Source: Polysphondylium violaceum (Eukaryota). Taken from it: a DNA stretch of 62,344 bases. Shown piece by piece: positions 46,834-62,105 of this stretch. How positions within the stretch are numbered: position 1 is the stretch's first letter; each line of letters opens with the position of its first letter. The stretch is from the NCBI GenBank assembly GCA_000277445.1, contig AJWJ01000015.1:37669-100012 (forward strand). Direction: 5' to 3'. A program made the position numbers and the translations under genes. The notes under the pieces were generated by a model. The model saw only the letters and a program-made list of their open reading frames with translations, was not told the origin of the DNA and did no database searches.

Positions 46834-48767
46834 TTATATTTCAAAATTAGATTGTTGTTTTCGATTCTTTTTCTGCATTTGAGGAGGAGGTGTAAAAGTG
46901 GGTGGTAGTTGTTGTGGTGGTTGTTGCGGCATAGGATTCATATTAATATTGTTATTTGGCTGTTTGTAAGGATGAAAGTTTTGATTTAAATTATTTAGGG
47001 GTGGTGATTGCTGTGGAAATTGATTAAAATTATTATTATTTGGAGGTGAATATTGAGGTTGAGCGTGGGGTTGGGGTGGTTGATAAAGATTTACACTTGC
47101 GAGGGTTGGTGATGATTGTTGGGCATTTAATGTGGGTGAGTTGGCTGTGGGTGGTGTGTTGGTGTTGCTGTGGCCACCGCTGGTGGCGGTGTTGGTTACG
47201 GGTTGAGAGAGACCTGGTAAAATAAAGTCGGGGACTTCGGGGGCATCTTCTTCGTTTTCTATGTCTTTGGAGGCGTGTGGATTGTTGTATTTGTCCTTCA
47301 TAGTATCGGCAGGTCTGTTTCTGCACCAAAATTTGGTGGTGTGGTCGTTGGACCCGCTGGCGAGAATGTGGCCAATCGGGTGCCAAGAGAGGGACCAGAC
47401 ACTGGCCTCGTGGGCCGAGTAGATCTCACCCTGGGGATTGTCTTGGCCGACGACCCAGTAGAGAATGGATCCGTCAAAACCTCCGCTGACAAAGAGGTCC
47501 TCGTGTTGGGGGTGCCAGGCCACCGATGTCATCTCTTTGACAACCTCTTTGTGTGCTTTAAACGTCTGGAGTTCTTTCATGGTACGAATGTCAAAGAGCT
47601 TGAGCAACGAGTCTCTGCTGGCGCTCACCAACCAGTTGCCATTCTGGTTCCACTGGACCTGGAGGACCGTGTTTTTGTGGCCGTGGAGGGTGGTTATATT
47701 TTCGCCCGACTTGGCATCCCACATCTTGATCAAGTTGTCTTTGCTTCCCGAGGCAATGATAGATTTCTGTGGATGCCATGACACACACTTTACATCCCAA
47801 CCGTGTCCGGTGATGACCTTCTCCTCTTTACAACGAGCAAAGTCCCAAATCTTGATGGTTACATCATCTGAACAAGAGGCAATCTTGAAATCTGTTGGAG
47901 AGAAACTAATGCCTCTCACAGACTCTTTGTGCGCTTGAAATATCTTTACATTGTTCATGTTTGGTTGCCAATATTTAATCAATCCTCCGTCGTCACCCGA
48001 CACCATCCAATCTTCATTGTGTGACCAAACCATTGCTCTAACTGCTGTATCATGTGCTTGTAAAATGGTTTCAAAATTAAATGTCAAACCATTCCATAGT
48101 GTAAACTCTCCACTTGATGATCCTGTAATTAATCTTCTACCTTCTGGTGTCCACTATAGTATAAATATATTTATTAATATCATTATTGATATGTTACATC
48201 TACATCCCCAGATACATACAGTTACACAATTGATTGGGTATTTAACTTTATTTGCAGATGTATGAATAAATCTTGAACATATACTTGTAATAGGATTCGA
48301 GTCCAATGCTAATGGCGGTAATATCTGTTTTATGTTTGTTTATCATCAAATTAATAATCTATCATAACTAGTATACAGTGTCTGTCTCTATTTACTTCTC
48401 TAATATACAATGAATCTGGTTGAACAGCTGAAAAATCTCTATAGTCTCTTTGAAACACTTTTGTTTGATTGTATTTAATTAAAGTGGAGTTGAAATCAAC
48501 AGTTTTACGAACAACTGCTTTTCTCATACGTTTACCATCATAGACAATCTTTGAAGCGTGATAGTTGCTATAGTAATGGTTATGGTAACCTCCACGTTCA
48601 CCACCTCCATGATGATGTCCGCCTCTTCCACCTCCTCCACCTCCATCTCCTCCTTCACCATGATGATGTCCGCCTCTTCCACCACCTCCATGATGATGTC
48701 CGCCTCTTCCGCCACCGCCACCACCTCCCTCACCTCCATCATGATCACGATTATAATTGTGTGACAT
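46834..48767 (-). CDS. WDR33 / Pfs2-like pre-mRNA 3'-end processing WD40 protein; 3 exons (48767-48419, 48283-48220, 48153-46834)
   Basis: Exon 1 has a Gly/His-rich N-terminus then [43 protein letters not shown] (human [43 protein letters not shown]). Exon 2 ..[13 protein letters not shown]. Exon 3 [35 protein letters not shown]..., seven WD repeats, a Pro/Gln-rich tail. Confidence 0.85.
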
Positions 48768-50054: not shown

Positions 50055-51128
50055 TTACCAACAACCAAAGTCCCATTTAAGACCGCAATTTGTAGAACAA
50101 AGAGGGAACCAAATTTTTTCAAGGAATAGAATCATTCTTACTTTTTTGTTTTTTATACTTGAATGAAACAAATTTAATAATGAAACATTGTTATTGAGTA
50201 CCTTTGGCTTTTCCATGGGTTTTTCTACATCATAAAAGGTAAATGTTTCTAAAGCTCTTTCTTGTATAGATTTTGGATCCCATGTAACTTTGTTGTTTGG
50301 TGTTGACCATTCATTGAATCCATAACGAACTAGATGAATTTTTGATTTTTGGAATCTTAATAGATTAGCATAATGATATTTATCAGTATCCCATTGGAAA
50401 CTATAGAAAACATAAAATGGGATAGCTTCTTTAAATGCAGCAAATGAATCTAATTGTTGAGACACTTTACCAGGTCTATTAATAGATTCTTGCTTTTTGT
50501 TTAATATTTCTTCTAACAGTTTTCCAGAACATGTACTACATGCCATAAATTTGGTAAAGAGATAAAACCCCCCTTTTTCACACTTATCCTTTAAACCCTT
50601 ATAGGTATTGATAGCCTCTAACATAATCGATTCAGAATGAAAATGGTCAGTCTTTGTATCACCCATCATATGTTGAATTACAAATTCACTGTTTTCAAAA
50701 CTCGGTAATATTTCAAGAAATTTAGCTTTTTCGTCTCTTATTCTAACTGGTTCTTTGCCACCATCGATTAAAACGGTCCAATCATAGATAATTTTCATAA
50801 TAGGTTTCCCATCTGGACCTTTTATAGGGTTTCCATCTTTATCTTTCTCTTCCACTCTTTCTGATCCCCATTGGACTGTTCTCAAACTTTGACTTGGATT
50901 AAAGCAAAATCCTAGGTAAAGTAAAGTAGATTTAGAGTTAATATTTGTAGTAGATAACAAAAGCTTGAAATACAAACCAAATTGAGAAATAGGAGCTTTG
51001 GAATGCCTAGGAAAAATAATGTCGTATGATATATCAAGTTGTTTCTTAATATTACCAGGAACAGCGTTCCATTGTTGTGAAATAATCACTGGTACTAAAA
51101 GTATAAATATAGTAAAAACCTTTATCAT
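50055..51128 (-). CDS. Secreted protein (357 aa) of unknown family with an H-x-E ... C-x2-C motif pair spaced as in cytidine/dCMP deaminases
   Basis: Signal peptide MIKVFTIFILLVPVIISQQ. HSESIMLEAINTYKGLKDKCEKGGFYLFTKFMACSTCSGKL has H-S-E then A-C-S-T-C 34 residues later. No TM segment. Confidence 0.5.
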   Translation of the reverse strand: MIKVFTIFILLVPVIISQQWNAVPGNIKKQLDISYDIIFPRHSKAPISQFGLYFKLLLSTTNINSKSTLLYLGFCFNPSQSLRTVQWGSERVEEKDKDGNPIKGPDGKPIMKIIYDWTVLIDGGKEPVRIRDEKAKFLEILPSFENSEFVIQHMMGDTKTDHFHSESIMLEAINTYKGLKDKCEKGGFYLFTKFMACSTCSGKLLEEILNKKQESINRPGKVSQQLDSFAAFKEAIPFYVFYSFQWDTDKYHYANLLRFQKSKIHLVRYGFNEWSTPNNKVTWDPKSIQERALETFTFYDVEKPMEKPKVLNNNVSLLNLFHSSIKNKKVRMILFLEKIWFPLCSTNCGLKWDFGCW

Positions 51129-51445: not shown

Positions 51446-52783
51446 ATGACCGATCAATCACAACAACAGCAACAACAAGGAGATACAAAGAGGTGTAATT
51501 TAAATATACAGTTGAATAATGATATAGTGTGGAACAAGAACCTGTGTGTATATGATTTCAGTGACACGGGCAGAGGTGTTGTGGCGTTGGACGATATCGA
51601 GGCAAATGAGGTGTTGATCTCTGTGCCTACAGCATTACTCTTGCACTCGCGCTCATTGTTTTCTATCCAAGAGTTCAACGCACCTTCGCATACACTGCAG
51701 CTGATCAATGCAAAGTTAGACTCGAAACAAAGGATTTGTTTACGTTTGGTTGTAGAGAGATGTTTAAAACAGAGATCGAAATGGTACACATACTTGCTGG
51801 ATGTGCCCGCAAGCTATCAGACGATATCAAATTACTCTGATCAAGATATACAGTCTCTCTACTACCCACCGTATATCGCCGAGGCTGTCAAGCTAAAAAA
51901 TCAGTTACAAGACAGTTTTAGTAGATTCACAGCAATAGTAGATCAGGTAATAGCAACAACAGCAAATTCAAATATAGATCACGATATAAGTAAATCAGAT
52001 ATAACAAACAAAGAATCATATGAATGGGCCTGGGGAATAATTCAGACCAGAACCTATTATTATAGCAAGAATCTTGGTGGTGGTAGTAATAGTAGTAATA
52101 GTAATAACAAGGATAAAGACGACTGCACAGTAGTGCCCTTTGCAGATTTCTTTAACCATAGTTGCAGTGTAGATACAGAGGCATCGTTTAATGACAAGAC
52201 AGGGTATTATCAAGTGATCACCAAAACACCGTTTGCCAAAGACGCTCAGGTGTTTATATCGTATGGCAAACATTCAAACTTTACCTTACTTTCTCACTAC
52301 GGGTTTGTCGTTCAAGACAATCCATTTGAAGATATATCGTTGATCCAGAGTGATGCAGTGACGCCCAACCTATACACACCCACCACGGGCGATCAAGTCA
52401 AAACCCACGAGAAAAAGATCAAAATCCTCGAGACCTATGGTCTGGGTATCAGTGGCAAATTCATACTCTGTCTCGATGACGCTTTACCCGTGTCTTGGAA
52501 TTACCTTTCAACACTAAAGGTATTGTTTATGAGCAAACAAGAGATCAATCAAGAGAAAGAACAGAATCTATTTTACTATGATCAGTCTATCAGTGTGGAA
52601 AACGATAGACTTGTGTACACATATCTATGCAATCTGGTTGAATCGCTGCTCAAGGGTTTTAATCACCATTACCAAAGTAACAGGAATCGTCTGAAATCTG
52701 AAATCCAAACTATCATACTCTCCCACATCAATATCCTCACAAACTGTTTACATTGGTTAACAAAAGAAATGCCTAATAAATAA
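51446..52783 (+). CDS. SET-domain lysine methyltransferase, RBCMT/SETD6/SETD3 class, single exon
   Basis: GRGVVALDDIEANEVLISVP, ...VVPFADFFNHSCSVDTEASFNDKTGYYQVIT..., VFISYGKHSNFTLLSHYGFV (SET post-motif), C-terminal substrate-binding-like region. Confidence 0.75.
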   Translation: MTDQSQQQQQQGDTKRCNLNIQLNNDIVWNKNLCVYDFSDTGRGVVALDDIEANEVLISVPTALLLHSRSLFSIQEFNAPSHTLQLINAKLDSKQRICLRLVVERCLKQRSKWYTYLLDVPASYQTISNYSDQDIQSLYYPPYIAEAVKLKNQLQDSFSRFTAIVDQVIATTANSNIDHDISKSDITNKESYEWAWGIIQTRTYYYSKNLGGGSNSSNSNNKDKDDCTVVPFADFFNHSCSVDTEASFNDKTGYYQVITKTPFAKDAQVFISYGKHSNFTLLSHYGFVVQDNPFEDISLIQSDAVTPNLYTPTTGDQVKTHEKKIKILETYGLGISGKFILCLDDALPVSWNYLSTLKVLFMSKQEINQEKEQNLFYYDQSISVENDRLVYTYLCNLVESLLKGFNHHYQSNRNRLKSEIQTIILSHINILTNCLHWLTKEMPNK

Positions 52784-52888: not shown

Positions 52889-55800
52889 TTATTTCAAGTA
52901 CTTTCTATTGGCACCAGCATAGATCTCTTGTTTGACCTTTTCATTGGTTGGTTTGTTTTTGATAGAGGCAATGTTACGATACACATCGTCAATAACAATT
53001 TTAGATAGAATCCAATCAGTACTAAAATCAAAAGAGTCTTTTAGGTTTGTGACAAAGATATAGATGTACAATCGAACAATCGAGTCAAAGGATTTAAAGA
53101 AATAGAATGGTTTCAGAATATTCTCATGAATACCAAGAACAGAGGCCAGATCTTTGGCAGTGCACGAATTGTTGTTTAAAATGGTCAAGAGACTATTCAA
53201 GATCTTCATTACGGGGACTCTATCTTTTTCATCTCTAGGTGCAAGAGGGGCCTTGACGCTTGAAACAGAACCAATTACTTTTTTGTCGACAACTGAGCTA
53301 ATGCTATTAAAGCTACCGCCACTGTTAGTGATACTACGAGTAAAACTAACAATACCAGATTTAGTACGACCTGAGGCTCCTCCATGTTTACCCCCAAAGA
53401 ATGATGGGGTTGAGGCTGGAGCTGGAGTTGGAGCTGGAGCTGGAGTTGGAATTGGAGCTGGGGGTGCTTGACTCTTTTTCTTGGATTTGAGTTTTTCATT
53501 TTTCTCTTCCTTTACAACGGGCTTTAATCTTCTTCTCGAATATTCTCCAAGAATCATAGGTGCGATCTCTCTTTCTTCTGAGCTTTCGGCCCAATTGCCA
53601 AGACTCTTTTGAATGCTTTCCATAGAGAGTGAAGAGGATTTTAATCTACTATCTTCGTCCTTTACTTTGGATGGTGCATAGGATGGAGAGGTTGGTGAGT
53701 ATGATGGGGAAGTTGGTGAGTATGATGGGGAAGTTGGTGAGTATGATGGAGAGGTCGGTGAGTAACTTGGCTCTTCATCAAACAAACCGAAACCACAATC
53801 TTCTTCTTCGGATTCCTCTTGTATTTTTGTATTTAAAGATGAGTAGCTGGGTGTACGGGTTGAATAGCCACCGCCACCATAACCACCTTCATCACCAAAG
53901 AGACCGAATGCCATCTCTTCTTCTTCATCGCTCTCCTCCTTTATTATTTCTTGTTTTCTGGGAAAAGAGGCAGCTGCAGCTGCGCCAAATACTTGTGGTT
54001 GAGGTTTAGGTTTAACTGGTTCGTCTGGATAGTCACCAAAGAGATCGAATCCCATATCTTCATCAGAATTATCATCATACTTGGCACACTCTTTTGGTTT
54101 ATTGGCAGCGGCTAGAAATATATGTGATTTTTCTTGAATAGGTTGGGCAACATCAAATGAGCCGCCACCAAAGAAAGAGTCTTCGTCATCGCCATCGCCA
54201 TCGTCATCGCCCCATCCTTCATCTTCTGATTCATTTTCCAAAGCAGACATACTGGCTCTTCTGTGATATAAAGCGGATGAAAGATTATTAAACAAATCTG
54301 TTGATTGGGGTTCCGGTGCCTTTTCTAGAGCTTTGTAGGCCTTGTTGAGTGTGGTTCCACTTTGGATTTGAGACAGCAATGAGCTTCTTGGTTCAACAAC
54401 ACCACCAGATTTGGCAGCTGGAGGTGGAGGAGGTGGTGCACCCATAGCACTTGCAAATCCAAATCCACCTCTAGAAACACCACCAGTTGAAGGGGGAGGT
54501 GGTGGAGGTCCACTACTCATTGAGTTTCCAAAGGCAAAGCTTCTTGGAGCTCCTGGTGGTGGAGGTGGAGCTGATATTGGTTGAGATAAAGATGAAGGAC
54601 CTCTGGGAACTTCATCAGCTCTTGTGGACATATATCTCATCTCCGTTGGTCTTGATGAAAGTGGTACAGGTGGTGGAGTTGGCAAAACAGGCTTGGGAGG
54701 TGCAAGTGGTGCTGATGCTTGTGGTGCTTGCATTCTAAACATACCCTTTGGTGCTGCTCTTTCCATATCATCAACCCTCAAACTTCTATACCTAAGCGAT
54801 TCACTTGAGACCGATGTAGATGTTGTTACTGGTTGTTGAGGTTTTCCATCAGAAAACATTGATAAAAAGCTGTTATTGTTATTGTTATTGTTATTATTAT
54901 AGCTGAGACTTTGCATTTGTTGAGGTTGTTGTTGATATTGCATTTGTTGTTGTGGATAATGAATTTCTTGTTTTTGTGATATAAATTGTTGTTGTTGTTG
55001 ACTCATTTGCTGAATAGGAGCGGGAAGTGGAAGATTGAGTGGAATATCAGGACTACGATCTCTTTTATCTACAGAATAGGTAACAGAACTCTTTCTACCG
55101 AGCTCTAGATCTGAGCCACTACTTCTACCTCCAACGCCACCAAAAAAGAGTCCCATATCTAGACCACCTTTGCCAGACAGTGAAGGTATCTCTTGAGATT
55201 GAGGAGCGATCGATTTAAATGGTGATTGTGATGATGAAGAGGAATCTTTTTTCTTGACAGGGGTGCCCCAGACAACAGTTGGTTGGGTTGGAGCGTTGAC
55301 TTCAACAACAGGCTCAACATTTGCCTCAATTGAATCGAGTAAACAACTTTGTTCACTCACCATTGAGCTCATCTCGTGCATAAGCATGGTTATGTCTCTC
55401 AACTCTTGCATGAGGAAAGTGGTTTGTGTGTAGCTGTCTTCAGAAAGAGTATCCAATTCAGAGATACTATCGTTGAATGCTCTGTGAGATATACTAGCAG
55501 ACTTGGCAACGTCGCCAATCTTGGCATAAAACTCGGATGCAGATTTGGCAATCATCAATCTCACTGGATGCATTGGTGGAAGAGATTCAGCAGAGCCTTT
55601 GATAGATTGGTCAATGAGGGATTTCGTCTTTTCAATCAATGAATTCTTGGCGATCTCGTTGTCTTCACATTGAATCAAGCTAGTGTAGAGAATGTACTCC
55701 TTTTCCAAAACAGAGAGCTTGGATTCCTCAGAGTTTTGGTTCTTTGGTAAACTGCTCTCGACCAATCTCAAGAGGGTCTTTGTTTGGTAGCTGAGATCCG

Positions 55801-58800
55801 ATTTAACCTTTTTTTGTTTTCTAATCAAGTTTTTAACTGCCAACGAATTTGGTGTCTTTGTTGGTGTAGTTGTCAAGGTTGAGGAGCCACCAATTTGTTT
55901 ATCGAGTTGGTCAATCAATTCAACAGAGGGATTGATAATTTCTTTGACAGTTGTGTTGAGTAAATCCAATTCTTGAGAAGAATATTCGCCAAAAGTATCC
56001 AAAATTTGATGGAATACTCGGACAGAGTCGTTGAATTGTTTCTTTTGGTGATAGTCTTTGATGAGGTTCACAATCTGTTCACGTCTACTCACAAGAGATG
56101 GGTCAGAGGGATCTTGGTCATTGCCAGACTCTTTTTCTTGGTAGGCGATATTGGCCAGAGCATCAACGTTGGTTTTGGAGACAATTTCCATGATGTTGAG
56201 AGTCACTTTTTGTTGTTCATCCTTTTCTCTCTTTTCCACTGCGACAAAACTGGTGAAAGGAGTGACGATGCTATACTTGATGCTAAGATCGATAATGTCG
56301 TCCTTTTTCTTTTGCTTAATGAGGTCGTGGTCAAATTTGTTGGTGCTGTAGGTACCGTCGTTGTATTCTCTGATCATGGAACGAGCAGCGAGTTTGTGGA
56401 TCAAGTCGCCTTTGATGAACCCAATTTCAGGTGTGTTGACAATGTTGCTGACCTGACCACCGCCTGGGGCTTGGGCGACCAATGTGGCCCTGCTGCAAGA
56501 TCCGGAAAAGGCGTATACCACTTGTCTCTCTTGTCTAAACACAGAAGTGATGGTGGAAGGCGACTGAACAACGGCAGCGGTAGTGTCAAATTTTACACGA
56601 ATATTGGACATGGCCGGTTGAACGGTTCTTTGGAGTTGGGCAATGATCTTTTTGGGATTTGGTCTCTTGTTTGGCACGACAAACTCTGCATAACCGGCAC
56701 CCAATCTAGAAATAGATTTGATAAAGTGTCGAGAGACATTCTCGCCAATACCAAAAGTAAAGAGACGACAGAATGGTGATGCTCGTTTGGCCAACTGCTG
56801 CACAGTGTCTTCATTGGCAACGTTACCATCAGTAAACAAGAGAATGTTGTGAGGGTTGTTGGACTGGGCCTTTTCTGCCAAGAGGTAAAGCGATTGCAAT
56901 GGGAGGTGAAGGGTTGTGCCGCCATAGGATGGGGTGAGACGATTGATGTGGTTCCAGGCAATTTGTAAATTGGCCTCGGTGGGTGCAACGTCCTCAACAA
57001 ACAGCCAATCAAAGAAATCACCAAACTGGACGATATTAAATAACACCTTTAATCCTCTGAGATTGGAAATAGTGATACGGACAGCTCTCAACATATCCTC
57101 AAAGGCATCGCCTTTCATTGAGGCGGACAAATCAAGCAAGATGGTGAGATGGGTGGCAGCATCCTTGGATGTGTCGATATCAAGCTTTGGATAAAATGCC
57201 AACATGGAGGCCAAGTGGTTGTTGCTATCGCTTTCGATCCACATTCTTGGCGAATAGGGTTCCTCGAGACCGACTAGCAATTGGAAATTCTTGTTACCAA
57301 AGCTGCTTTCTTCTGTGACAAGACAAACGGTGGCCTTGGTGTGAGTCTTTTTCACCTTGATTTGATGGGTAGGCGAGACAAGCTTGACGATATTGTAAGG
57401 CATATCGACACCGATTTCCAAAGACAAGTGACCTTTTCCTGCGCCAACTTGGACAGTGCCAGTGGTGGATTGGGTGACAACGGATCCAGATTTCTTTTTT
57501 TGATCTGGGGTGATTGAACGTGGCAAAATAAAGCTGATATCCAATCCATCGACTGACAACTCTGTGATGTATGTGATCTTGATCAATACGTCTGCCTTGG
57601 GCGGCAAGTTTCCAACACTGACGGTAAAGACGTCTGGTTTGTCCTCGTCCATGAGATAGGCCCCGTGACCGGCGGCAACAGCCTCACGGTACTCTTTGTG
57701 AGCCTTTTCCTTTTCCTTTACCTCACCAATGATATGTTTTCCATTGATAAAAGCCTCAAAGCCACAGACAGCCCCCATCTCGTCCAGAGGAAACACATAC
57801 TTGGCCTCAAGATTAGAGGCACTGTGGTTCTTGTAGTGTTGAAAGATGGTTACCTCGCCAATGAGATCGAGGAGTCTGGTCTTGACATGAACAGATTCAA
57901 GCGAGATATCTGGTGTGGGTGTGCCAGACTTTGAGACAAGACCACATACTTGGTCATCCTCTGTGGCCTCATCTTTGTCGGAATTGGCAGCAGGAACAAT
58001 GGTTGGTGCACTGGTGACTGGCAGAGTGGTGGCTTTCTTGGCGTCACTGATTTGAACAGTTAAATTGGCATTCACACTGCTGGACTGAGCGGTTGAGCTA
58101 TTGTCTTTAAACTCAATCATGTATTCAATCCTTTGTTGATTGGCATCAAAAATGACAATTTCGTCATCCTTGAATTGTGATTTATTGCTCGAGGTGTGAG
58201 CTACACCTTGGATGCTGTGAAAACCCTTTGGAGGACGATCAAGTTGTGGTTGGTGGGTGGTGTATTTTTTGATACTGCCCAAAGCAACTTTGCAAATAAA
58301 CATGTATTGTCTTTGGTTCACTGGAGAAGTACGACAATATTGAGCAGATGTTGCACTCTTTGTACCAAAGTAAATACCGCTACCCAAGTAGCCAATATCT
58401 CTTCTATTTGCACCCATAACAGTGGATAAATTTGGTGGCAATAGACCTCTACTCAAAATACCCAATATATTACTTGAATTACTGCCATGATACAAACTTT
58501 TGGTGTTTGGGAATTGAAATACTCTATTTTCTTCATCATTTCTATTAATTTTAAATACATTATGAATAGTATATACCTGTGTAATTATTATTTACTTGTT
58601 AGTATATGAATAGCCACTTTTGGCCAAGATCTATTACTTACATCTAAATTGAATTGATTTAAAATATTTTTAAATTCTTTGCTAGATTTATCCAAGACAC
58701 TTATATTACACTTGAGGGATTTGTAACGGGTTTCGGTGGTATTTGAACGATTGGCTGTACCAAGAGATTCACCAAAATTTAAAATATCCTTCATTAATTG

Positions 58801-60249
58801 AATAGCTTCCTGGATATCGGAAACACATTCAAGAGTGTATTCTTTTTTAATCTTGTTTAATTGTGGTAAACAGGTATATAGATCATCGTAAAGCTTTTTA
58901 ATGGATGGGGTTGGAATTAATTCTTTGACTGTTGGCTGTTGATCCCCGGCTAAGGTATTGCTTGGTTTGCTAGTACTAGTGTTAGCCAAGACTCTTAGTT
59001 CATTTGATAACTGGAATAAAATCAATTCAGCTTTCTCGACTTGGCTGAGGGCAATTTCACCAAGGGCGGTTTTAATGGAACCCTCTGGTGAGAGAATGAG
59101 TGAGTTGGATCCCAGTTTGGAGCCGAGACTAGTGGTTGCATCGGTGTAGACGAGATTGACCAAACGCTCGACTTCAAGGTCAAGTGTTGGAATTCCTGTA
59201 CGCTCAATCGAGGAACTTTGCTTGAGTTTATCTGAACCGATAATCACAGAGGATAAACTAATCTTTGAGTAACCTCTTGTGGAATAGTCGAGGAATATTT
59301 GGTTGTATATAGTCATTGCTTGATTGATATCCGATGCTAAAATCCATTCCTTTACACTTTGCTCCATCTTGTTTGATGTTCCATAATGAAGAAACACTCT
59401 AAACTTACTGTTGCCGCCACTAGACACAGTACTGTCGTCTGATGCCTGGCCTGTTTGAATCAACTTTAAGCAATCTCCTGCGGCATGCAACTCGACACAC
59501 ACAAATTCACTGCCAGGGGCAACCAAAAGGTTGTATTTGACAATATGATAAGCATCCTCTGGAAATTCGTCCTTGATGGCTGGATTGTATGTCTTCCTTT
59601 GGTGCTGTACTTGCTGCTGTTGCTGGCCATCTTTCCTTTTATCGTCATCCATAACATCAGAGAAATCAAAAGACTTGTAATGGTCCTCTTTGATATTATA
59701 CTGAGACACCAAAGAGTATTCGTCCGAGGACAACAAAGATCCATGTAATATGGAATCCTCCAAATATCTCTTACTAACCACCGGTATATTTAATTTGAGT
59801 GCCTTCTTTATATTGAATGACAAACTATCCAACAAAATATCTTTTTTCTTTTCTCCCTTGTAAATCTCTTGATTCTCAATATTTACCAATAAATTGAAAT
59901 CTCCATTATAGATATAAAAATGGACCTAATTATAACGTATATGAGATTAGTATTGTAAATCTAAATCCAACTTATACATCTATTTTAAATATCTAAATAT
60001 ATCCAATTTAATCAATCGATCTATATCTCAATATTGACAATGACACATATGACTGACACTTACTTTATTATTCAATATCATGGATGTTGTTCCACCATAC
60101 TTTTCAATAAATTCAATCAATTCCTTTTTAACTTTATATCCTTTGGCATCACCACTATCGATATAATAAACAAATGGTGATAGGGGCCCTTTTTTTACAT
60201 TTGCCCCACTATCACTACTATCAACTGATTTCAAAGGTGAAGGTACCAT
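52889..60249 (-). CDS. Vault-PARP-like poly(ADP-ribose) polymerase (BRCT - PARP regulatory - PARP catalytic - VIT - vWA) with a about 900-aa disordered C-terminal tail; at least 3 exons (60249-60064, 59925-~58610, ~58570-52889)
   Basis: [38 protein letters not shown]. Catalytic: [98 protein letters not shown]. v[25 protein letters not shown] donor after exon 1. The junction between the regulatory and catalytic parts (around 58540-58610) needs either a very short (about 41 nt) intron or a frameshift. Confidence 0.8.
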
Positions 60250-60585: not shown

Positions 60586-62105
60586 TTAATAGAGTTGTTG
60601 TAATTGAGGTTTACCATTACTGTTGCTGCTGTTGTTTGGTGGTGGTGGACCAAGCGATGAGGTAGAGTTGGTTGGCGATTGTGACGAACGAATGACAGAT
60701 TGTACTTTTTTAACAGTGGCTTTAATCATAAATTGATCCCTAGAGAGTGATCTAACATTCTTTATATACTCTTCCAATGAGATACGATTGCTGTGGAGTG
60801 CTTTGTCCAAGTAATAGAGTAAATCCTCAATGGTCGAGTCGTCAGACACCAATTTCAACAATTGTTTGGAAAGTGAGTCCTTTGGTCCCAATATACTGTC
60901 GACATCAATCTCTCCCTCACTCTTGTCATTTTCTAATAACCAGTCATCCAATTGTTTAATCTTTTCTCTCAATTGTTGAATTTCATTATCATTTTGATTC
61001 TAGAATTTAAAGAGTGGTTAATAAGATGTCTTTATCTATATGTCTACCTCTACTACTGCGACACCAATACATACATTTTGCTGATTAATAGTTTGTTTTT
61101 CCAACTCGTATTTCTTTTTCAATTCAGACAATGAATCGTTGTGAGCTAAAAAGTTTTCAATCTCTTTGCCAGTGGTGTCATAGTACTTGGACAAGAGTTC
61201 TTGGAGTTTAATTGTACATTTTGAGAGTATCTCAATCTTGGGATCGACTGCAGGTATGGAGGGTAGGGGTTTGGCGATGGGTTTGGTGTCTGTGGGTTGC
61301 GTGGGTGGAGGAAGTGAGTTACTATTATTGTTATTGATTGGTGCTTTTTTAGAGATGGATGAGTCATATGAAGGTGGGGGTTGTTGTGTCGGTAATTGCT
61401 GTTGTTGCCAGCTGTTGTTGCTGTTGGTGTTGGGTGGTGCTATATAGTTTTTGTTTGTGGGTGAGGTACTGGCGTAGTTGTATGAGGGAGGGGGTTCGGT
61501 GGTGGCAGGAGGTGGTGGAGGCTGTCTGGTGGGTGGAGGTGAGGTATTTGTGTTTGACTGTTGCTGTTGTTGTTGAAGTGGAGGTCTGAGACTAAATGTA
61601 TCGCAAAGTAGCTTGATATACTGTCCCAATGTCGAGCTCATTGTCCAATTGTTCATGTATGGATGAAACACAATACCCTGCTCATTTACATGTGGATGGC
61701 TTTTAACAATATACATATCGGGTGTTGGATCCAACACCACCATCGGTGCCTCCATAGGATATGCCAGCGGCATCCAAATAACCACCGGTATGTAATAGGT
61801 TACATTATTATAATAGATGGGTATCGTTCCTTTCAAGAATATCAAGTTTCCTCTATCTATATACACAACACATGATTAATTAATATCTACTCTCTCACTC
61901 TCCTACTGCTGTGCTCACACACCTATACACTATACATACGACCTGCATTACCATAGTATGGTAAAAGATTTGGGAACAAATGAAAAGACTCTCTAACGTC
62001 TCTTTGTAATCGTACAGAGTCTCTGTAGATTTTAATCAACATTAAATAACTATTCAACGTAGATATCTTTGAATCGACATGAGAGGTTGTATACATGTAA
62101 TTCAT
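60586..62105 (-). CDS. tsg101: TSG101 / Vps23 (ESCRT-I) with UEV domain, Pro-rich linker, coiled coil and steadiness box; 3 exons (62105-61943, 61856-~61049, 60999-60586)
   Basis: Exon 1 ..YRDSVRLQRDVRESFHLFPNLLPYYGNA|. Exon 2 DRGNLIFLKGTIPIYYNNVTYYIPVVIWMPLAYPMEAPMVVLDPTPDMYIVKSHPHVNEQGIVFHPYMNNW (compare TSG101 [58 protein letters not shown]). Last exon ..ISLEEYIKNVRSLSRDQF (steadiness box). Confidence 0.85.

Follow-up and report, generated by a model that had tools for sequence, protein, structure and literature searches.

What is the long disordered tail of a PARP4-like protein for? PARP4 and the vault particle are textbook conserved components without an agreed function. The fast evolution of the disordered PARP4 tail is the one strong evolutionary clue so far (PMC4038475). 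We addressed this question at a locus of Polysphondylium violaceum, within a 62,344-nucleotide stretch of DNA (hereafter the window), for which the original prediction described a tail combining a WASP/Scar-like Pro-WH2-acidic/Trp layout, peptides resembling the C-terminus of the ribosome's P-stalk proteins and heptads of the RNA polymerase II CTD. Translating the minus-strand ORF 52889..58495 yields every string quoted in that prediction. As described below, a conserved peptide array sits in deep-branching dictyostelid PARP4 relatives, in the region equivalent to the fast-evolving tail.

The tail is coding and belongs to an ancestral-type PARP4

The gene and its structured domains are as follows.

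52889..60249, minus strand: whole gene, 3 exons, from the ORF listing and the splice sites as read
60064-60249, minus strand: exon 1
58642-59925, minus strand: exon 2
52889-58576, minus strand: exon 3 including the stop codon, tail-encoding, uninterrupted over 5.7 kb
58127..58677, minus strand: PARP catalytic domain (Pfam PF00644), split by the intron 58577-58641
57569..57901, minus strand: VIT domain (Pfam PF08487, E 4.4e-37)
56681..57148, minus strand: vWA domain (Pfam VWA_3 and VWA, E about 1e-14)
55394..56059, minus strand: 14-3-3-like domain (Pfam PF00244, E 4.7e-18)

The splice sites read from the sequence have the form GTAAGT...AG, and the spliced product is a protein of 2385 a.a. whose translation contains a single stop, at its end. 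Its architecture is BRCT (weak)-PARP-VIT-vWA, followed by the 14-3-3-like domain and a disordered tail of ~830 a.a. The tail motifs are located within the ORF 52889..58495, a frame of 1868 codons that joins the upstream exons across a GTAAGT...CAG intron, and the annotated orthologs also contain the tail. The concern that the region might be intronic is settled by its position inside a continuous exon, and the motif-bearing stretch is coding. That the ORF is an artifact, produced by an intron, by mis-assembly or by neighboring genes fused in the reading, can be practically dismissed, given the 1868 codons without a stop in DNA of roughly 40% G+C, the matching architecture in two other species with independently assembled and annotated genomes, and a 3' part of the gene in which no GTAAGT-type intron signal is visible as read.

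The best 120 protein matches are all PARP4 or PARP4-like (37-45% identity), and the protein is an ancestral-type PARP4. After splicing, the PARP domain is complete (PF00644 profile positions 3-191 of 199, E 8.4e-28), with a readable and intact H-Y-E triad (LYHGS, GIYFG and DDEIVIF), and the translation of the vWA domain shows an intact MIDAS-type D-x-S-x-S motif (LLDLSASM). The N-terminal BRCT_2 match in the spliced model (E 3.3e-4, 21.3 bits) falls under the curated threshold of 27.3, as does that of the D. purpureum ortholog (24.3 bits).

Adjoining the tail on its upstream side is the 14-3-3-like domain, which had been overlooked in the original prediction. It scores 66 bits against a curated threshold of 33.2 and covers PF00244 positions 3-217 of 223, and helices H-I of the dictyostelid domain are near-canonical. 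In an alignment to 14-3-3 zeta, R56, R127 and Y128 (zeta numbering) are replaced in all three dictyostelids and the lysine at K49 is retained in the P. violaceum protein alone; judged from this alignment, the phosphate-binding residues are not conserved.

PARP4-like proteins with VIT, vWA and 14-3-3 domains were reported by Perina et al. (2014) in dictyostelids, Acanthamoeba, lancelet, sea urchin and Capsaspora, with D. discoideum lacking this type, and actin or actin-binding domains were noted on PARP4-like proteins of several protists (PMC4245714). With the type absent from D. discoideum, the comparison with that species proposed originally has no ortholog to draw on. The Perina et al. survey covers domains only, and the WH2/VCA, P-stalk-like and CTD-like peptides are unmentioned (PMC4245714). 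Vertebrate PARP4 (vault PARP) shares the PARP-VIT-vWA body, at 37-45% identity, and has a long disordered variable insert after the vWA domain; unlike in the dictyostelid protein, neither a 14-3-3-like domain nor a VCA was found in the sampled vertebrate PARP4 sequences. The vertebrate insert shows recurrent positive selection in primates, bats and others, and a role in contacts with pathogens has been proposed for it (PMC4038475). With hhalign, no homology emerged between the dictyostelid C-terminal region and the C-terminal domain of vertebrates (MVP-binding) or fungi; the comparison with the combined vertebrate plus fungal alignment gave a probability of 0.4%, from a three-sequence dictyostelid profile of little power. 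We found no published report of a motif array in the dictyostelid PARP4 tail. What has already been published is the combination of PARP4 with 14-3-3 and the fast pace at which the tail evolves in vertebrates.

A V-C-A module, P-stalk-like peptides and CTD heptads map to the tail

The features of the tail are as follows.

52892..55375, minus strand: disordered tail of 828 a.a. (AlphaFold2)
54545-54571, 54479-54514 and 54401-54439, minus strand: three poly-Pro runs (34 residues together), kept in both orthologs
54332-54388, minus strand: V, WH2-like helix of 19 residues (Pfam WH2 E 0.032)
54239-54298, minus strand: C, connector helix of 20 residues (ortholog alignment and predicted helix)
54164-54238, minus strand: A, acidic-Trp block of 25 residues
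54017-54070, minus strand: P-stalk-like copy 1, 18 residues
53888-53986, minus strand: P-stalk-like copy 2, 33 residues, with an Ala-rich, hinge-like lead-in
53771-53818, minus strand: P-stalk-like copy 3, 16 residues
53669-53770, minus strand: four perfect YSPTSPS heptads and a partial YAPS, a 21-nt tandem repeat
53405..53545, minus strand: EYSRRRL motif, K-rich stretch and Ala-Pro repeats
52901..53218, minus strand: C-terminal helical region of about 105 a.a. (predicted helices, pLDDT around 50)

The tail is disordered, as predicted: the single-sequence AlphaFold2 model has a mean pLDDT of 38.5, no residue reaches 70, and short helices are predicted only at the WH2, the C region, the K-rich stretch and the last ~105 a.a. 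Q/N, poly-Pro and Ala-Pro runs are also present. The EYSRRRL motif is common to D. purpureum and the AP repeats to C. fasciculata. Intron read-through was considered for the C-terminal helical region and rejected on the basis of its predicted helices and its weak alignment among the three dictyostelid orthologs.

The WASP/Scar-like layout proposed originally was borne out for the whole span and not for the WH2 by itself. The order of elements (Pro-rich, WH2, basic amphipathic C helix, acidic plus Trp) is that of the WASP/SCAR-WAVE VCA, with similar spacing. The S, LL, I and SG residues of the WH2-like helix are invariant across the three dictyostelids, and the C helix, with its conserved pattern L.SAL..RR.S, aligns to the WAVE/WASP C region. 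This connector helix had also escaped the earlier description, and it completes the V-C-A layout. A V-C-A profile gave 14.4, 17.3 and 19.6 bits on the three tails, spanning V to A, and none of 3000 locally shuffled tails (1000 per tail) exceeded 4.6 bits. The WH2 alone is weak (Pfam E 0.03-0.2), and statistical significance, as computed from sequence, belongs only to the whole V-C-A span. In nearly all known nucleation-promoting factors, the VCA lies at the extreme C-terminus. The VCA of the P. violaceum protein is internal, with about 430 residues after the acidic block, and a WH1, SHD or WAHD regulatory domain was not found in this protein with Pfam.

The next element resembles the P0/P1/P2 stalk tails (SD[D/E]DMGFGLFD) in having a Ser in CK2-like acidic surroundings followed by an acidic run and then MGFGLF[D/G], and the likeness extends to the Ala-rich hinge-like lead-in in copy 2 and in C. 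fasciculata. Copy 2 shares 12 of 30 residues with the human P2 C-terminus (BLAST). The profile evidence is strongest in an ortholog: Pfam Ribosomal_60s scores 43.7 bits, in four stretches, in the D. purpureum protein (curated threshold, 28.1), 25.7 bits (E 1.8e-5, profile positions 48-88) in C. fasciculata and a sub-threshold E of 0.086 in P. violaceum, and the matches span only positions 48-88 or 65-88 of the 88-position profile. A strict P-stalk regular expression matched nine times in the three dictyostelid tails and not once in shuffled sequences. Unlike in P0/P1/P2, the copies are internal, three to four in number and without an N-terminal dimerization domain, and copy 1 bears an invariant LFGDYP extension that is absent from the P proteins.

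The heptads are tandem, perfect consensus units, as in the RPB1 CTD, and match RPB1 CTD entries in the PDB at E 2e-41. Unlike in RPB1, they reside on a non-polymerase PARP-VIT-vWA host and number only four to seven in dictyostelids. A weak continuation of the match in the RPB1 linker was not convincing. At the DNA level, units 2 and 3 are identical, and all four differences among the four units are synonymous, which by our estimate would occur by chance with a probability of about (1/3)^4, roughly 0.01.

The motifs are conserved islands in divergent disorder

Lineage-specific loss of the motifs had been named as an outcome that would count against them. Two further dictyostelid groups, represented by the orthologs of Dictyostelium purpureum (F0ZTJ5) and Cavenderia fasciculata (F4PYX9), keep all three motif classes, and these orthologs share the BRCT (weak)-PARP-VIT-vWA-14-3-3-tail organization. 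The body is 57% and 50% identical to these orthologs, respectively; in the tail, only the block from the VCA to the P-stalk-like copies is alignable with them, at 30-34% identity. Both orthologs retain the Pro-rich, WH2, C-helix and acidic-Trp elements (the last as DEDDEDDWSD and DDDEEWDDD), three to four P-stalk-like copies and five to seven YSPTSPS heptads. Invariant columns of the tail fall in the Pro runs, in the WH2 core, in the C helix and at the acidic and MGF.LF positions, and a ten-residue string in P-stalk-like copy 1 is identical in all three dictyostelids. The C helices of the three orthologs carry RRAS, RRMS and RRLS as conserved variants. Moreover, an 8-mer scan identified the Pro-rich, P-stalk-like and heptad segments as the only islands common to the three species. 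Thus, the motifs are conserved islands within otherwise divergent disorder in three dictyostelid lineages, and they are not lineage-specific noise.

The modules are not fixed in place. Spacers and copy numbers differ between the species. In both orthologs, the heptads come upstream of the Pro-rich/VCA block, and in the P. violaceum protein they are located downstream of the P-stalk-like copies. This difference in module order fits independent linear motifs.

Borrowed peptides recur in animals, fungi and other lineages

The combination had been described as unusual for a PARP4-like scaffold. The scaffold was already known (PMC4245714), and the borrowing of peptides is much wider than a single odd protein. 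Fish, frog and mollusc PARP4 tails contain five strict P-stalk-like matches against 0.055 expected, with none in 118,000 non-tail residues. CTD-like peptides also occur in these tails, and in some fish and frog PARP4 proteins the P-stalk-like and YSPTSP-like peptides lie close to the start of the insert. In fungal VIT-vWA tails, there are eight P-stalk-like (0.08 expected) and 13 CTD-like peptides (0.01 expected), some of the counted fungal proteins being close relatives and hence not independent observations. Overall, both classes are enriched roughly 100-fold or more over composition-matched shuffles. Of the animal and fungal homologs sampled, about 4-8% carry strict P-stalk-like peptides, and this patchy distribution outside dictyostelids indicates that the P-stalk-like motif is not essential to the family.

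The fungal proteins, annotated as 'von Willebrand domain containing protein' (e.g., in Lasiodiplodia theobromae), consist of the VIT-vWA body, for which the nearest solved fold is ITIH1, a variable disordered insert and a conserved C-terminal helical domain. Unlike the P. violaceum protein, they lack PARP, BRCT and 14-3-3-like domains. Their inserts contain P-stalk-like and/or CTD-like peptides, pieces of the synaptobrevin SNARE motif, FG repeats or an RA domain. In other lineages, the same insert position is occupied by actin residues 1-70 (58-73% identical to human), the C-terminal half of 14-3-3, ubiquitin, a piece of the HSP70 substrate-binding domain, calmodulin, the synaptobrevin SNARE motif, FG-nucleoporin repeats or an RA domain, and the actin and 14-3-3 fragments are 47-73% identical to the human proteins across several animal phyla. 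Within a conserved scaffold, copies of host proteins occupy a single variable position and turn over from lineage to lineage, the pattern expected of a bait array.

The tail probably acts as an array of mimic docking peptides

We consider it probable that the tail serves as a modular array of mimic docking peptides, independent of position, and that the readers of these peptides are tethered by it. The array would occupy the variable disordered insert between the vWA/14-3-3-like body and the small C-terminal helical region, with each peptide mimicking the working end of a core cellular machine (the WASP-type module, the P-stalk tail and the Pol II CTD). By molecular mimicry and multivalency, the reader of an original peptide could dock on its copy and be held beside the ADP-ribosyltransferase and VIT-vWA (MIDAS) modules, where modification, sequestration or sensing of the tethered client could follow. 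The Pro-rich/VCA module might be read by profilin, G-actin and Arp2/3, the P-stalk-like copies by translational GTPases, GCN2 or ribosome-inactivating toxins, and the heptads by CTD kinases and CTD readers. We infer both that the copies bind the readers of the original peptides and what the fate of a bound protein would be.

There are precedents for docking on stalk peptides: Shiga-like toxin 1 docks on SD[D/E]DMGFGLFD (PMC3280276), and free P-stalk tail peptides bind the ricin A chain and competitively block ribosome depurination (PMC6162817). As a counterpoint to mimicry, the P-stalk-like copies are internal, unlike the C-terminal motif of the stalk proteins themselves, and ricin is reported to depend critically on the peptide's C-terminal end (PMC6162817).

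As for the clients, we lean slightly toward a bait or decoy array whose clients include non-self factors, because no other single logic accounts for all of these eclectic borrowed pieces; that endogenous clients are recruited is almost equally likely. In its general form, we tentatively suggest that the PARP4/VIT-vWA insert may be a eukaryotic integrated decoy cassette presenting the host peptides and domain surfaces that are the most frequent targets of toxins and effectors, with P-stalk tails, actin, 14-3-3, ubiquitin, HSP70, calmodulin, SNARE motifs, FG repeats, the Pol II CTD and the WASP VCA as the displayed copies. An intruder would dock on the copy instead of, or besides, its real target, and would then be ADP-ribosylated, sequestered (in vaults where present) or sensed via the VIT-vWA body. 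Indirect support for such docking comes from the positive selection in vertebrates (PMC4038475) and from the competition of P-stalk peptides for the ricin A chain (PMC6162817). The dictyostelid tail would be specialized as bait for factors that subvert actin nucleation, the ribosomal stalk and Pol II. The integrated decoys of plant NLRs and the bait region of alpha-2-macroglobulin, which also carry host-protein copies on a scaffold, are functional analogies; there is no homology to the P. violaceum protein. If the clients are pathogen factors, the tail would represent an integrated-decoy system outside plants and a natural counterpart of the P-stalk peptide decoys that block ricin in vitro (PMC6162817). 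Such a cassette, if real, would be an innate-immunity logic common to amoebae, fungi and animals and would account for the positive selection on the human PARP4 tail.

Alternatively, the clients may be solely endogenous, with no pathogens involved. This is a possible reading, in which the protein would be a genuine Arp2/3 nucleation-promoting factor and a recruiter of translation factors and CTD-binding enzymes, with eEF2, eEF1A, eRF3, eIF5B or GCN2 as substrates or partners of the diphtheria-toxin-type ADP-ribosyltransferase domain. The full Pro-rich, V, C and A layout, including the Trp and the RR of the C helix, persists in three lineages, for which a decoy has no obvious need, and the catalytic H-Y-E triad is intact. 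The ribosomal stalk uses multivalency to concentrate GTPases, and the three to four P-stalk-like copies resemble this arrangement. The earlier-noted actin and actin-binding domains of protist PARP4-like proteins point in the same direction (PMC4245714). However, endogenous recruitment leaves unexplained the probably non-folding fragments in relatives (actin 1-70, the 14-3-3 C-terminal half and the HSP70 piece) and the loss of phosphate-binding residues in the 14-3-3-like domain. In addition, fungal VIT-vWA proteins bear P-stalk-like and CTD-like peptides without a PARP domain, and therefore the peptides are not tied to ADP-ribosylation, and D. discoideum apparently copes without the gene (PMC4245714). 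If the clients are endogenous, a diphtheria-toxin-type ADP-ribosyltransferase would be physically linked to translational GTPases and Arp2/3. To our knowledge, the identity of the cellular eEF2 ADP-ribosyltransferase is a long-standing open question. For either type of client, the dictyostelid array, its animal and fungal recurrence and the fragments in other lineages turn uninterpretable disorder into concrete, testable binding hypotheses.

The peptides might instead be autoinhibitory pseudo-ligands, the acidic-hydrophobic ones folding back to occupy the vWA MIDAS site or the 14-3-3-like groove of the same protein; the 14-3-3-like domain might, for instance, hold an RRxS phosphorylated in the C helix, and the enzyme or the VCA would be kept off until a signal frees the peptides. 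MIDAS sites bind acidic residues of their ligands, and this protein has an intact D-x-S-x-S motif; WASP-family VCAs are typically autoinhibited via the C helix, and the C helices of the three orthologs contain RRAS, RRMS or RRLS. We nevertheless regard this as improbable: in a fungal homolog modeled by AlphaFold2 with a 67-sequence alignment, the P-stalk-like/heptad segment has pLDDT values of 30-45 with no sign of docking, versus 80-95 for the flanking domains, the 14-3-3-like domain lacks its phosphate-binding residues, and neither the heptads nor the foreign fragments of other lineages are explained.

Finally, the tail could be non-functional filler, a tolerant low-complexity region that passively gathers slippage repeats and pieces captured, for example by retro-copying, from highly expressed genes. 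Simple repeats abound in dictyostelid proteins, the P. violaceum tail has Q/N, poly-Pro and Ala-Pro runs, and its heptad units 2 and 3 are identical in DNA; many donors (actin, ubiquitin, HSP70, calmodulin, 14-3-3 and the P proteins) are very highly expressed, as retro-copy capture would predict. This explanation is already disfavored and very unlikely, since the ten-residue identity and all motif classes persist in tails that are otherwise about 30% identical, the differences between heptad units are all synonymous, and the actin and 14-3-3 fragments stay close to their human counterparts (47-73%) across several animal phyla. Furthermore, the peptides exceed the expectation from composition-matched shuffles about 100-fold or more and are absent from the non-tail parts; capture may account for the arrival of the pieces, but not for their retention.

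The motif-bearing tail is part of an open coding frame

The motif-rich tail lies in a minus-strand open reading frame (ORF; 52889..58495, 1868 codons), and given the ORF length and the ~40% G+C of the DNA, such a frame cannot be non-coding by chance. Two GTAAGT...AG introns were read upstream of the ORF, and the spliced three-exon product of 2385 a.a. contains a sole, terminal stop. Splicing completes the PARP catalytic domain (Pfam, E 8.4e-28), and the N-terminus of the spliced model shows a weak BRCT match (Pfam).

Features of the PARP4-like gene
60064-60249, minus strand: exon 1
58642-59925, minus strand: exon 2
52889-58576, minus strand: exon 3
55394-56059, minus strand: 14-3-3-like domain, between the vWA domain and the tail
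52889-55300, minus strand: tail region with the motifs
54017-54070, minus strand: P-stalk-like copy 1

Every tail peptide quoted in the original prediction was found in the minus-strand translation and assigned coordinates, and the doubt that the region might be intronic was settled by its position (52889-55300) inside one long open frame. When the tail alone (828 a.a.) was modeled with AlphaFold2, the mean pLDDT was 38.5 and no residue reached 70. Helices were predicted for the WH2-like and C segments, a K-rich stretch and the final ~105 residues only. The C segment is a 20-residue connector helix that links the WH2-like helix to the acidic-Trp block and had not been listed previously.

Several other assignments were considered. 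The C-terminal ~120 a.a. are not supported as a PARP4 MVP-binding-type domain: with a low-powered profile of three sequences, hhalign detected no similarity between the dictyostelid C-terminal region and the vertebrate or fungal C-terminal domain (probability 0.4%). The idea that a stretch near the 3' end (15-residue start) is an unspliced intron was dropped, since it lacks a splice consensus, is predicted to be helical and has an equivalent hydrophobic helix in the orthologs. A 23-residue stretch right after the 14-3-3-like domain (~55379-55330, minus strand) resembles the syntaxin SNARE motif by eye only (compare MLVESQGEMIDRIEYNVE); neither BLAST against syntaxin-1A nor Pfam gave a match.

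All motif classes are retained in orthologs, in a different order

With the 14-3-3-like domain and the tail as the query, a word-indexed search for homologs returned zero matches at E<=0.001, apparently because low-complexity words swamped the candidate list. The body as the query retrieved only animal PARP4 and PARP4-like proteins, with 37-45% identity. When the tail was searched exhaustively with HMMER, most matches were RPB1 CTD fragments; two long proteins, recovered in this way only, are the orthologs, F0ZTJ5 from D. purpureum (57% body identity) and F4PYX9 from Cavenderia fasciculata (50%).

Within the tail, the VCA-to-P-stalk block alone was alignable (30-34% identity), and the invariant columns of the three-way alignment were exactly the motif positions. 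Both orthologs keep every motif class: several poly-Pro runs, the WH2-like helix (SSLLGAIKSGFALKK in C. fasciculata), the C helix pattern L.SAL..RR.S, an acidic run with Trp (DEDDEDDWSD and DDDEEWDDD), 3-4 P-stalk-like copies and 5-7 YSPTSPS heptads. These conserved islands remove the main refutation considered in the original prediction, namely that orthologs lack the motifs and the tail is noise. In an unbiased 8-mer scan, the islands present in all three species were the Pro-rich, P-stalk-like and heptad ones only, and one 10-residue P-stalk-like string is identical in all three dictyostelids. In both orthologs the heptads precede the Pro-rich/VCA block, and in the window protein they come after the P-stalk-like copies. 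Taken together, the conserved islands, the reshuffled order and the divergent spacers are a signature of probably functional short linear motifs.

Smaller shared elements also change place between the species. SFLSMF comes after an Asn run in the window protein (54872-55165, minus strand) and close to the C-terminus in the C. fasciculata ortholog. EYSRRRL is common to the window protein and D. purpureum, and FFGG/GLFFGG motifs recur in the window tail and the orthologs.

Strength of each resemblance

The Pfam Ribosomal_60s profile matched the window protein below threshold (E 0.086), the C. fasciculata ortholog with E 1.8e-5 over profile positions 48-88, reaching into the hinge, and the D. purpureum ortholog above the curated threshold (43.7 bits, four stretches), bearing out the proposed P-stalk likeness. 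The likeness to the Pol II CTD holds as well: in the PDB, the heptads hit RPB1 at E 2e-41. At the DNA level, they form a tandem repeat of 21 nt, and the four codon positions that vary among its four units carry synonymous changes only.

The proposed WASP/Scar-like layout stands as a whole, but not by its WH2 element, which by itself is weak (E 0.03-0.2 in the window protein and orthologs, Pfam). A profile of the V-C-A span, made from five mammalian VCAs, scored 14.4, 17.3 and 19.6 bits on the three dictyostelid tails, spanning V to A, whereas none of the 3000 locally shuffled tails exceeded 4.6 bits. In the window protein, the VCA and the P-stalk-like copies occupy internal positions, in contrast to the originals (stalk proteins, VCA), which are C-terminal.

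P-stalk-like copy 1 carries an invariant extension, LFGDYP. Its LFGDY is a candidate match to the overlapping AP-1 gamma-ear / GGA-GAE binding consensus (aromatic-G-[PDE]-[aromatic/L/M], acidic context), so this copy may combine two motifs or be another motif altogether. In some RPB1 matches, phmmer stretched the alignment upstream into the P-stalk-like copies; the posterior support was low, and therefore this extension was not counted as RPB1-linker mimicry.

Related peptides occur patchily in animals and fungi

Beyond the dictyostelids, P-stalk-like and CTD-like peptides are patchy.

P-stalk-like peptides in animal PARP4 tails
Cyprinodon: SDDESVDDMGFGLFDDD
Cololabis: two copies
Aplysia: SESDEDMGMGLFD, SEPDIGFGLFDDD
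Clam: SEEEMGFSLF
Frog Hyperolius: SEDMGFALYDD, followed ~20 a.a. on by a CTD-like stretch including YAPISPSY

The vertebrate P-stalk-like peptides lie 50-90 residues past the conserved FTSFVAVE anchor, early in the variable region, and precede YSP-like and poly-Pro stretches. A Botryosphaeriaceae VIT-vWA protein without a PARP domain, retrieved by the tail search, carries DSDDEDMGFGLFDGPPSSYSPTSPTYSPASPS. Among the 102 animal PARP4 homologs, the strict P-stalk-like pattern had five hits in the tails of four proteins, as compared with 0.055 expected from composition-preserving shuffles and none in 118,000 non-tail residues. In the tails of 120 fungal VIT-vWA homologs, strict P-stalk-like peptides were found in eight proteins (0.08 in the same kind of shuffles) and CTD-like peptides gave 13 hits in 10 proteins (0.01), both with none outside the tails, although these counts exceed the number of independent events, because some of the fungal proteins are closely related.

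The two peptides are adjacent in the window protein, in Botryosphaeriaceae and, at a distance of ~20 a.a., in the frog protein. They are more than 250 a.a. apart in both dictyostelid orthologs and the fungal co-occurrence represents a single lineage, so obligatory adjacency was rejected and co-occurrence alone is claimed. A 393-a.a. protein from a Logan contig (P0258) has three P-stalk-like copies with Ala/Pro hinge-like spacers; its gene model may be truncated or frameshifted.

Other borrowed pieces

The 14-3-3-like domain (Pfam 66 bits vs. a curated cut-off of 33.2), directly upstream of the region originally highlighted, had escaped that reading. Helices H-I of the dictyostelid domain are near-canonical (29-residue stretch). 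The phosphate-binding residues K49, R56, R127 and Y128 are not conserved, with R56, R127 and Y128 replaced in the window protein and both orthologs. Further pieces were found in the homologs. Beside the BLAST comparisons with reference proteins, Pfam independently backs the pieces from actin, ubiquitin, HSP70 and 14-3-3, as well as EF-hands in the calmodulin-like region.

Borrowed pieces at the corresponding tail position of PARP4-like and VIT-vWA proteins
Actin residues ~1-70: seven invertebrate PARP4-like proteins from several phyla (P0002, P0004, P0005, P0006, P0012, P0015, P0062), 58-73% identity to human beta-actin
14-3-3, C-terminal ~95 residues only: PARP4-like proteins of Branchiostoma (two), Ptychodera and, more weakly, the gastropod Gigantopelta, 44-62% identity
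14-3-3 piece: sea star Patiria, weak sub-threshold Pfam hit
Ubiquitin: eight mollusc PARP4-like proteins, with the RLRGG end retained in some
HSP70 substrate-binding-domain piece: oyster PARP4-like protein P0015
Calmodulin-like module: Pinctada (pearl oyster) PARP4-like protein P0004, 81% identical to calmodulin
Synaptobrevin SNARE-motif pieces (including the ER.xxL central layer), FG-nucleoporin repeats or RA domain: fungal VIT-vWA inserts P0281, P0289, P0304, P0295, P0365

The fungal inserts are all located between the vWA-associated anchor and the conserved C-terminal helical domain. As a family-wide rule, the variable insert would be occupied by hub-protein mimics. A 1392-a.a. JGI metagenome protein (P0055) adds a further version of the variable tail: behind PARP-VIT-vWA, it contains a protein kinase domain and a PTB domain of the IRS type.

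The family itself is known. Perina et al. (2014) described PARP4-like proteins with VIT/vWA and 14-3-3 in D. fasciculatum, D. purpureum, P. pallidum, Acanthamoeba, lancelet, sea urchin and Capsaspora, reported D. discoideum to be without this type, and noted actin, actin-binding or ubiquitin-related additions, with no mention of the WH2, P-stalk or CTD motifs (PMC4245714). The array was likewise not found in the literature on PARP4 (stalk peptide, decoy/mimic, antiviral, rapid evolution) and on VIT proteins with the ribosomal stalk, and we could not find an earlier description of the conserved array in the literature searched.

A putative multivalent array of docking peptides

The motifs, orthologs and profile statistics confirm the observation behind the original prediction and support its overall interpretation. 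The array is conserved, modular and recurrent, and the best-supported reading is that the tail would be a multivalent array of mimic docking peptides. We infer the binding by these peptides and its consequences: the array would tether the natural readers of the docking peptides to the PARP/VIT-vWA body.

Two variants of this reading are nearly equally likely. The clients may be endogenous, in keeping with a VCA that is complete, an H-Y-E triad that is intact and a multivalency like that of the stalk. Alternatively, the clients may be non-self and the array a bait or decoy, the sole variant that would give one logic to four observations together: the borrowed pieces are eclectic and often fragments; the 14-3-3-like domain has lost its ligand-binding residues and kept the helix H-I sequence; the peptides are present on fungal proteins without PARP; and the disordered region of vertebrate PARP4 (>300 a.a.) is under recurrent positive selection and was proposed as a pathogen-specificity interface (Daugherty et al. 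2014, PMC4038475). A bait would also fit the competition by P-stalk peptides for the ricin A chain: free peptides experimentally compete it off ribosomes (PMC6162817), and Shiga-like toxin 1 docks on SD[D/E]DMGFGLFD (PMC3280276).

It is less likely that the peptides are autoinhibitory pseudo-ligands, since an MSA-based AlphaFold2 model of the fungal homolog, whose VIT-vWA body resembles ITIH1, gave pLDDT values of 30-45 for the peptides against 80-95 for the folded domains, with no hint of docking. Passive filler is also less likely; it may explain the origin of the borrowed pieces but leaves their retention unexplained. An artefact is excluded for practical purposes.

Gene neighborhood

Neighboring genes and ORFs
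60586-61866, minus strand: TSG101/Vps23 homolog upstream (UEV and Vps23 core, intron-split, Pro/Gln-rich linker)
51446-52783, plus strand: SET-domain protein with a Rubisco-LSMT substrate-binding domain, convergent with the PARP4-like gene
50055-51128, minus strand: dictyosteliid-specific AID/APOBEC-like deaminase (DAAD) ORF (Pfam E 1.3e-6), a lineage marker that, along with the orthologs, assigns the window to a dictyostelid, one other than D. purpureum or C. fasciculata
48351-48767, minus strand: ORF with a Gly/His-rich 11-residue repeat in three copies

The last of these is overlapped by long ORFs in other frames on both strands. It may belong to the WD40 gene at 46834-48087 as its 5' exon, or else be a small gene in its own right.
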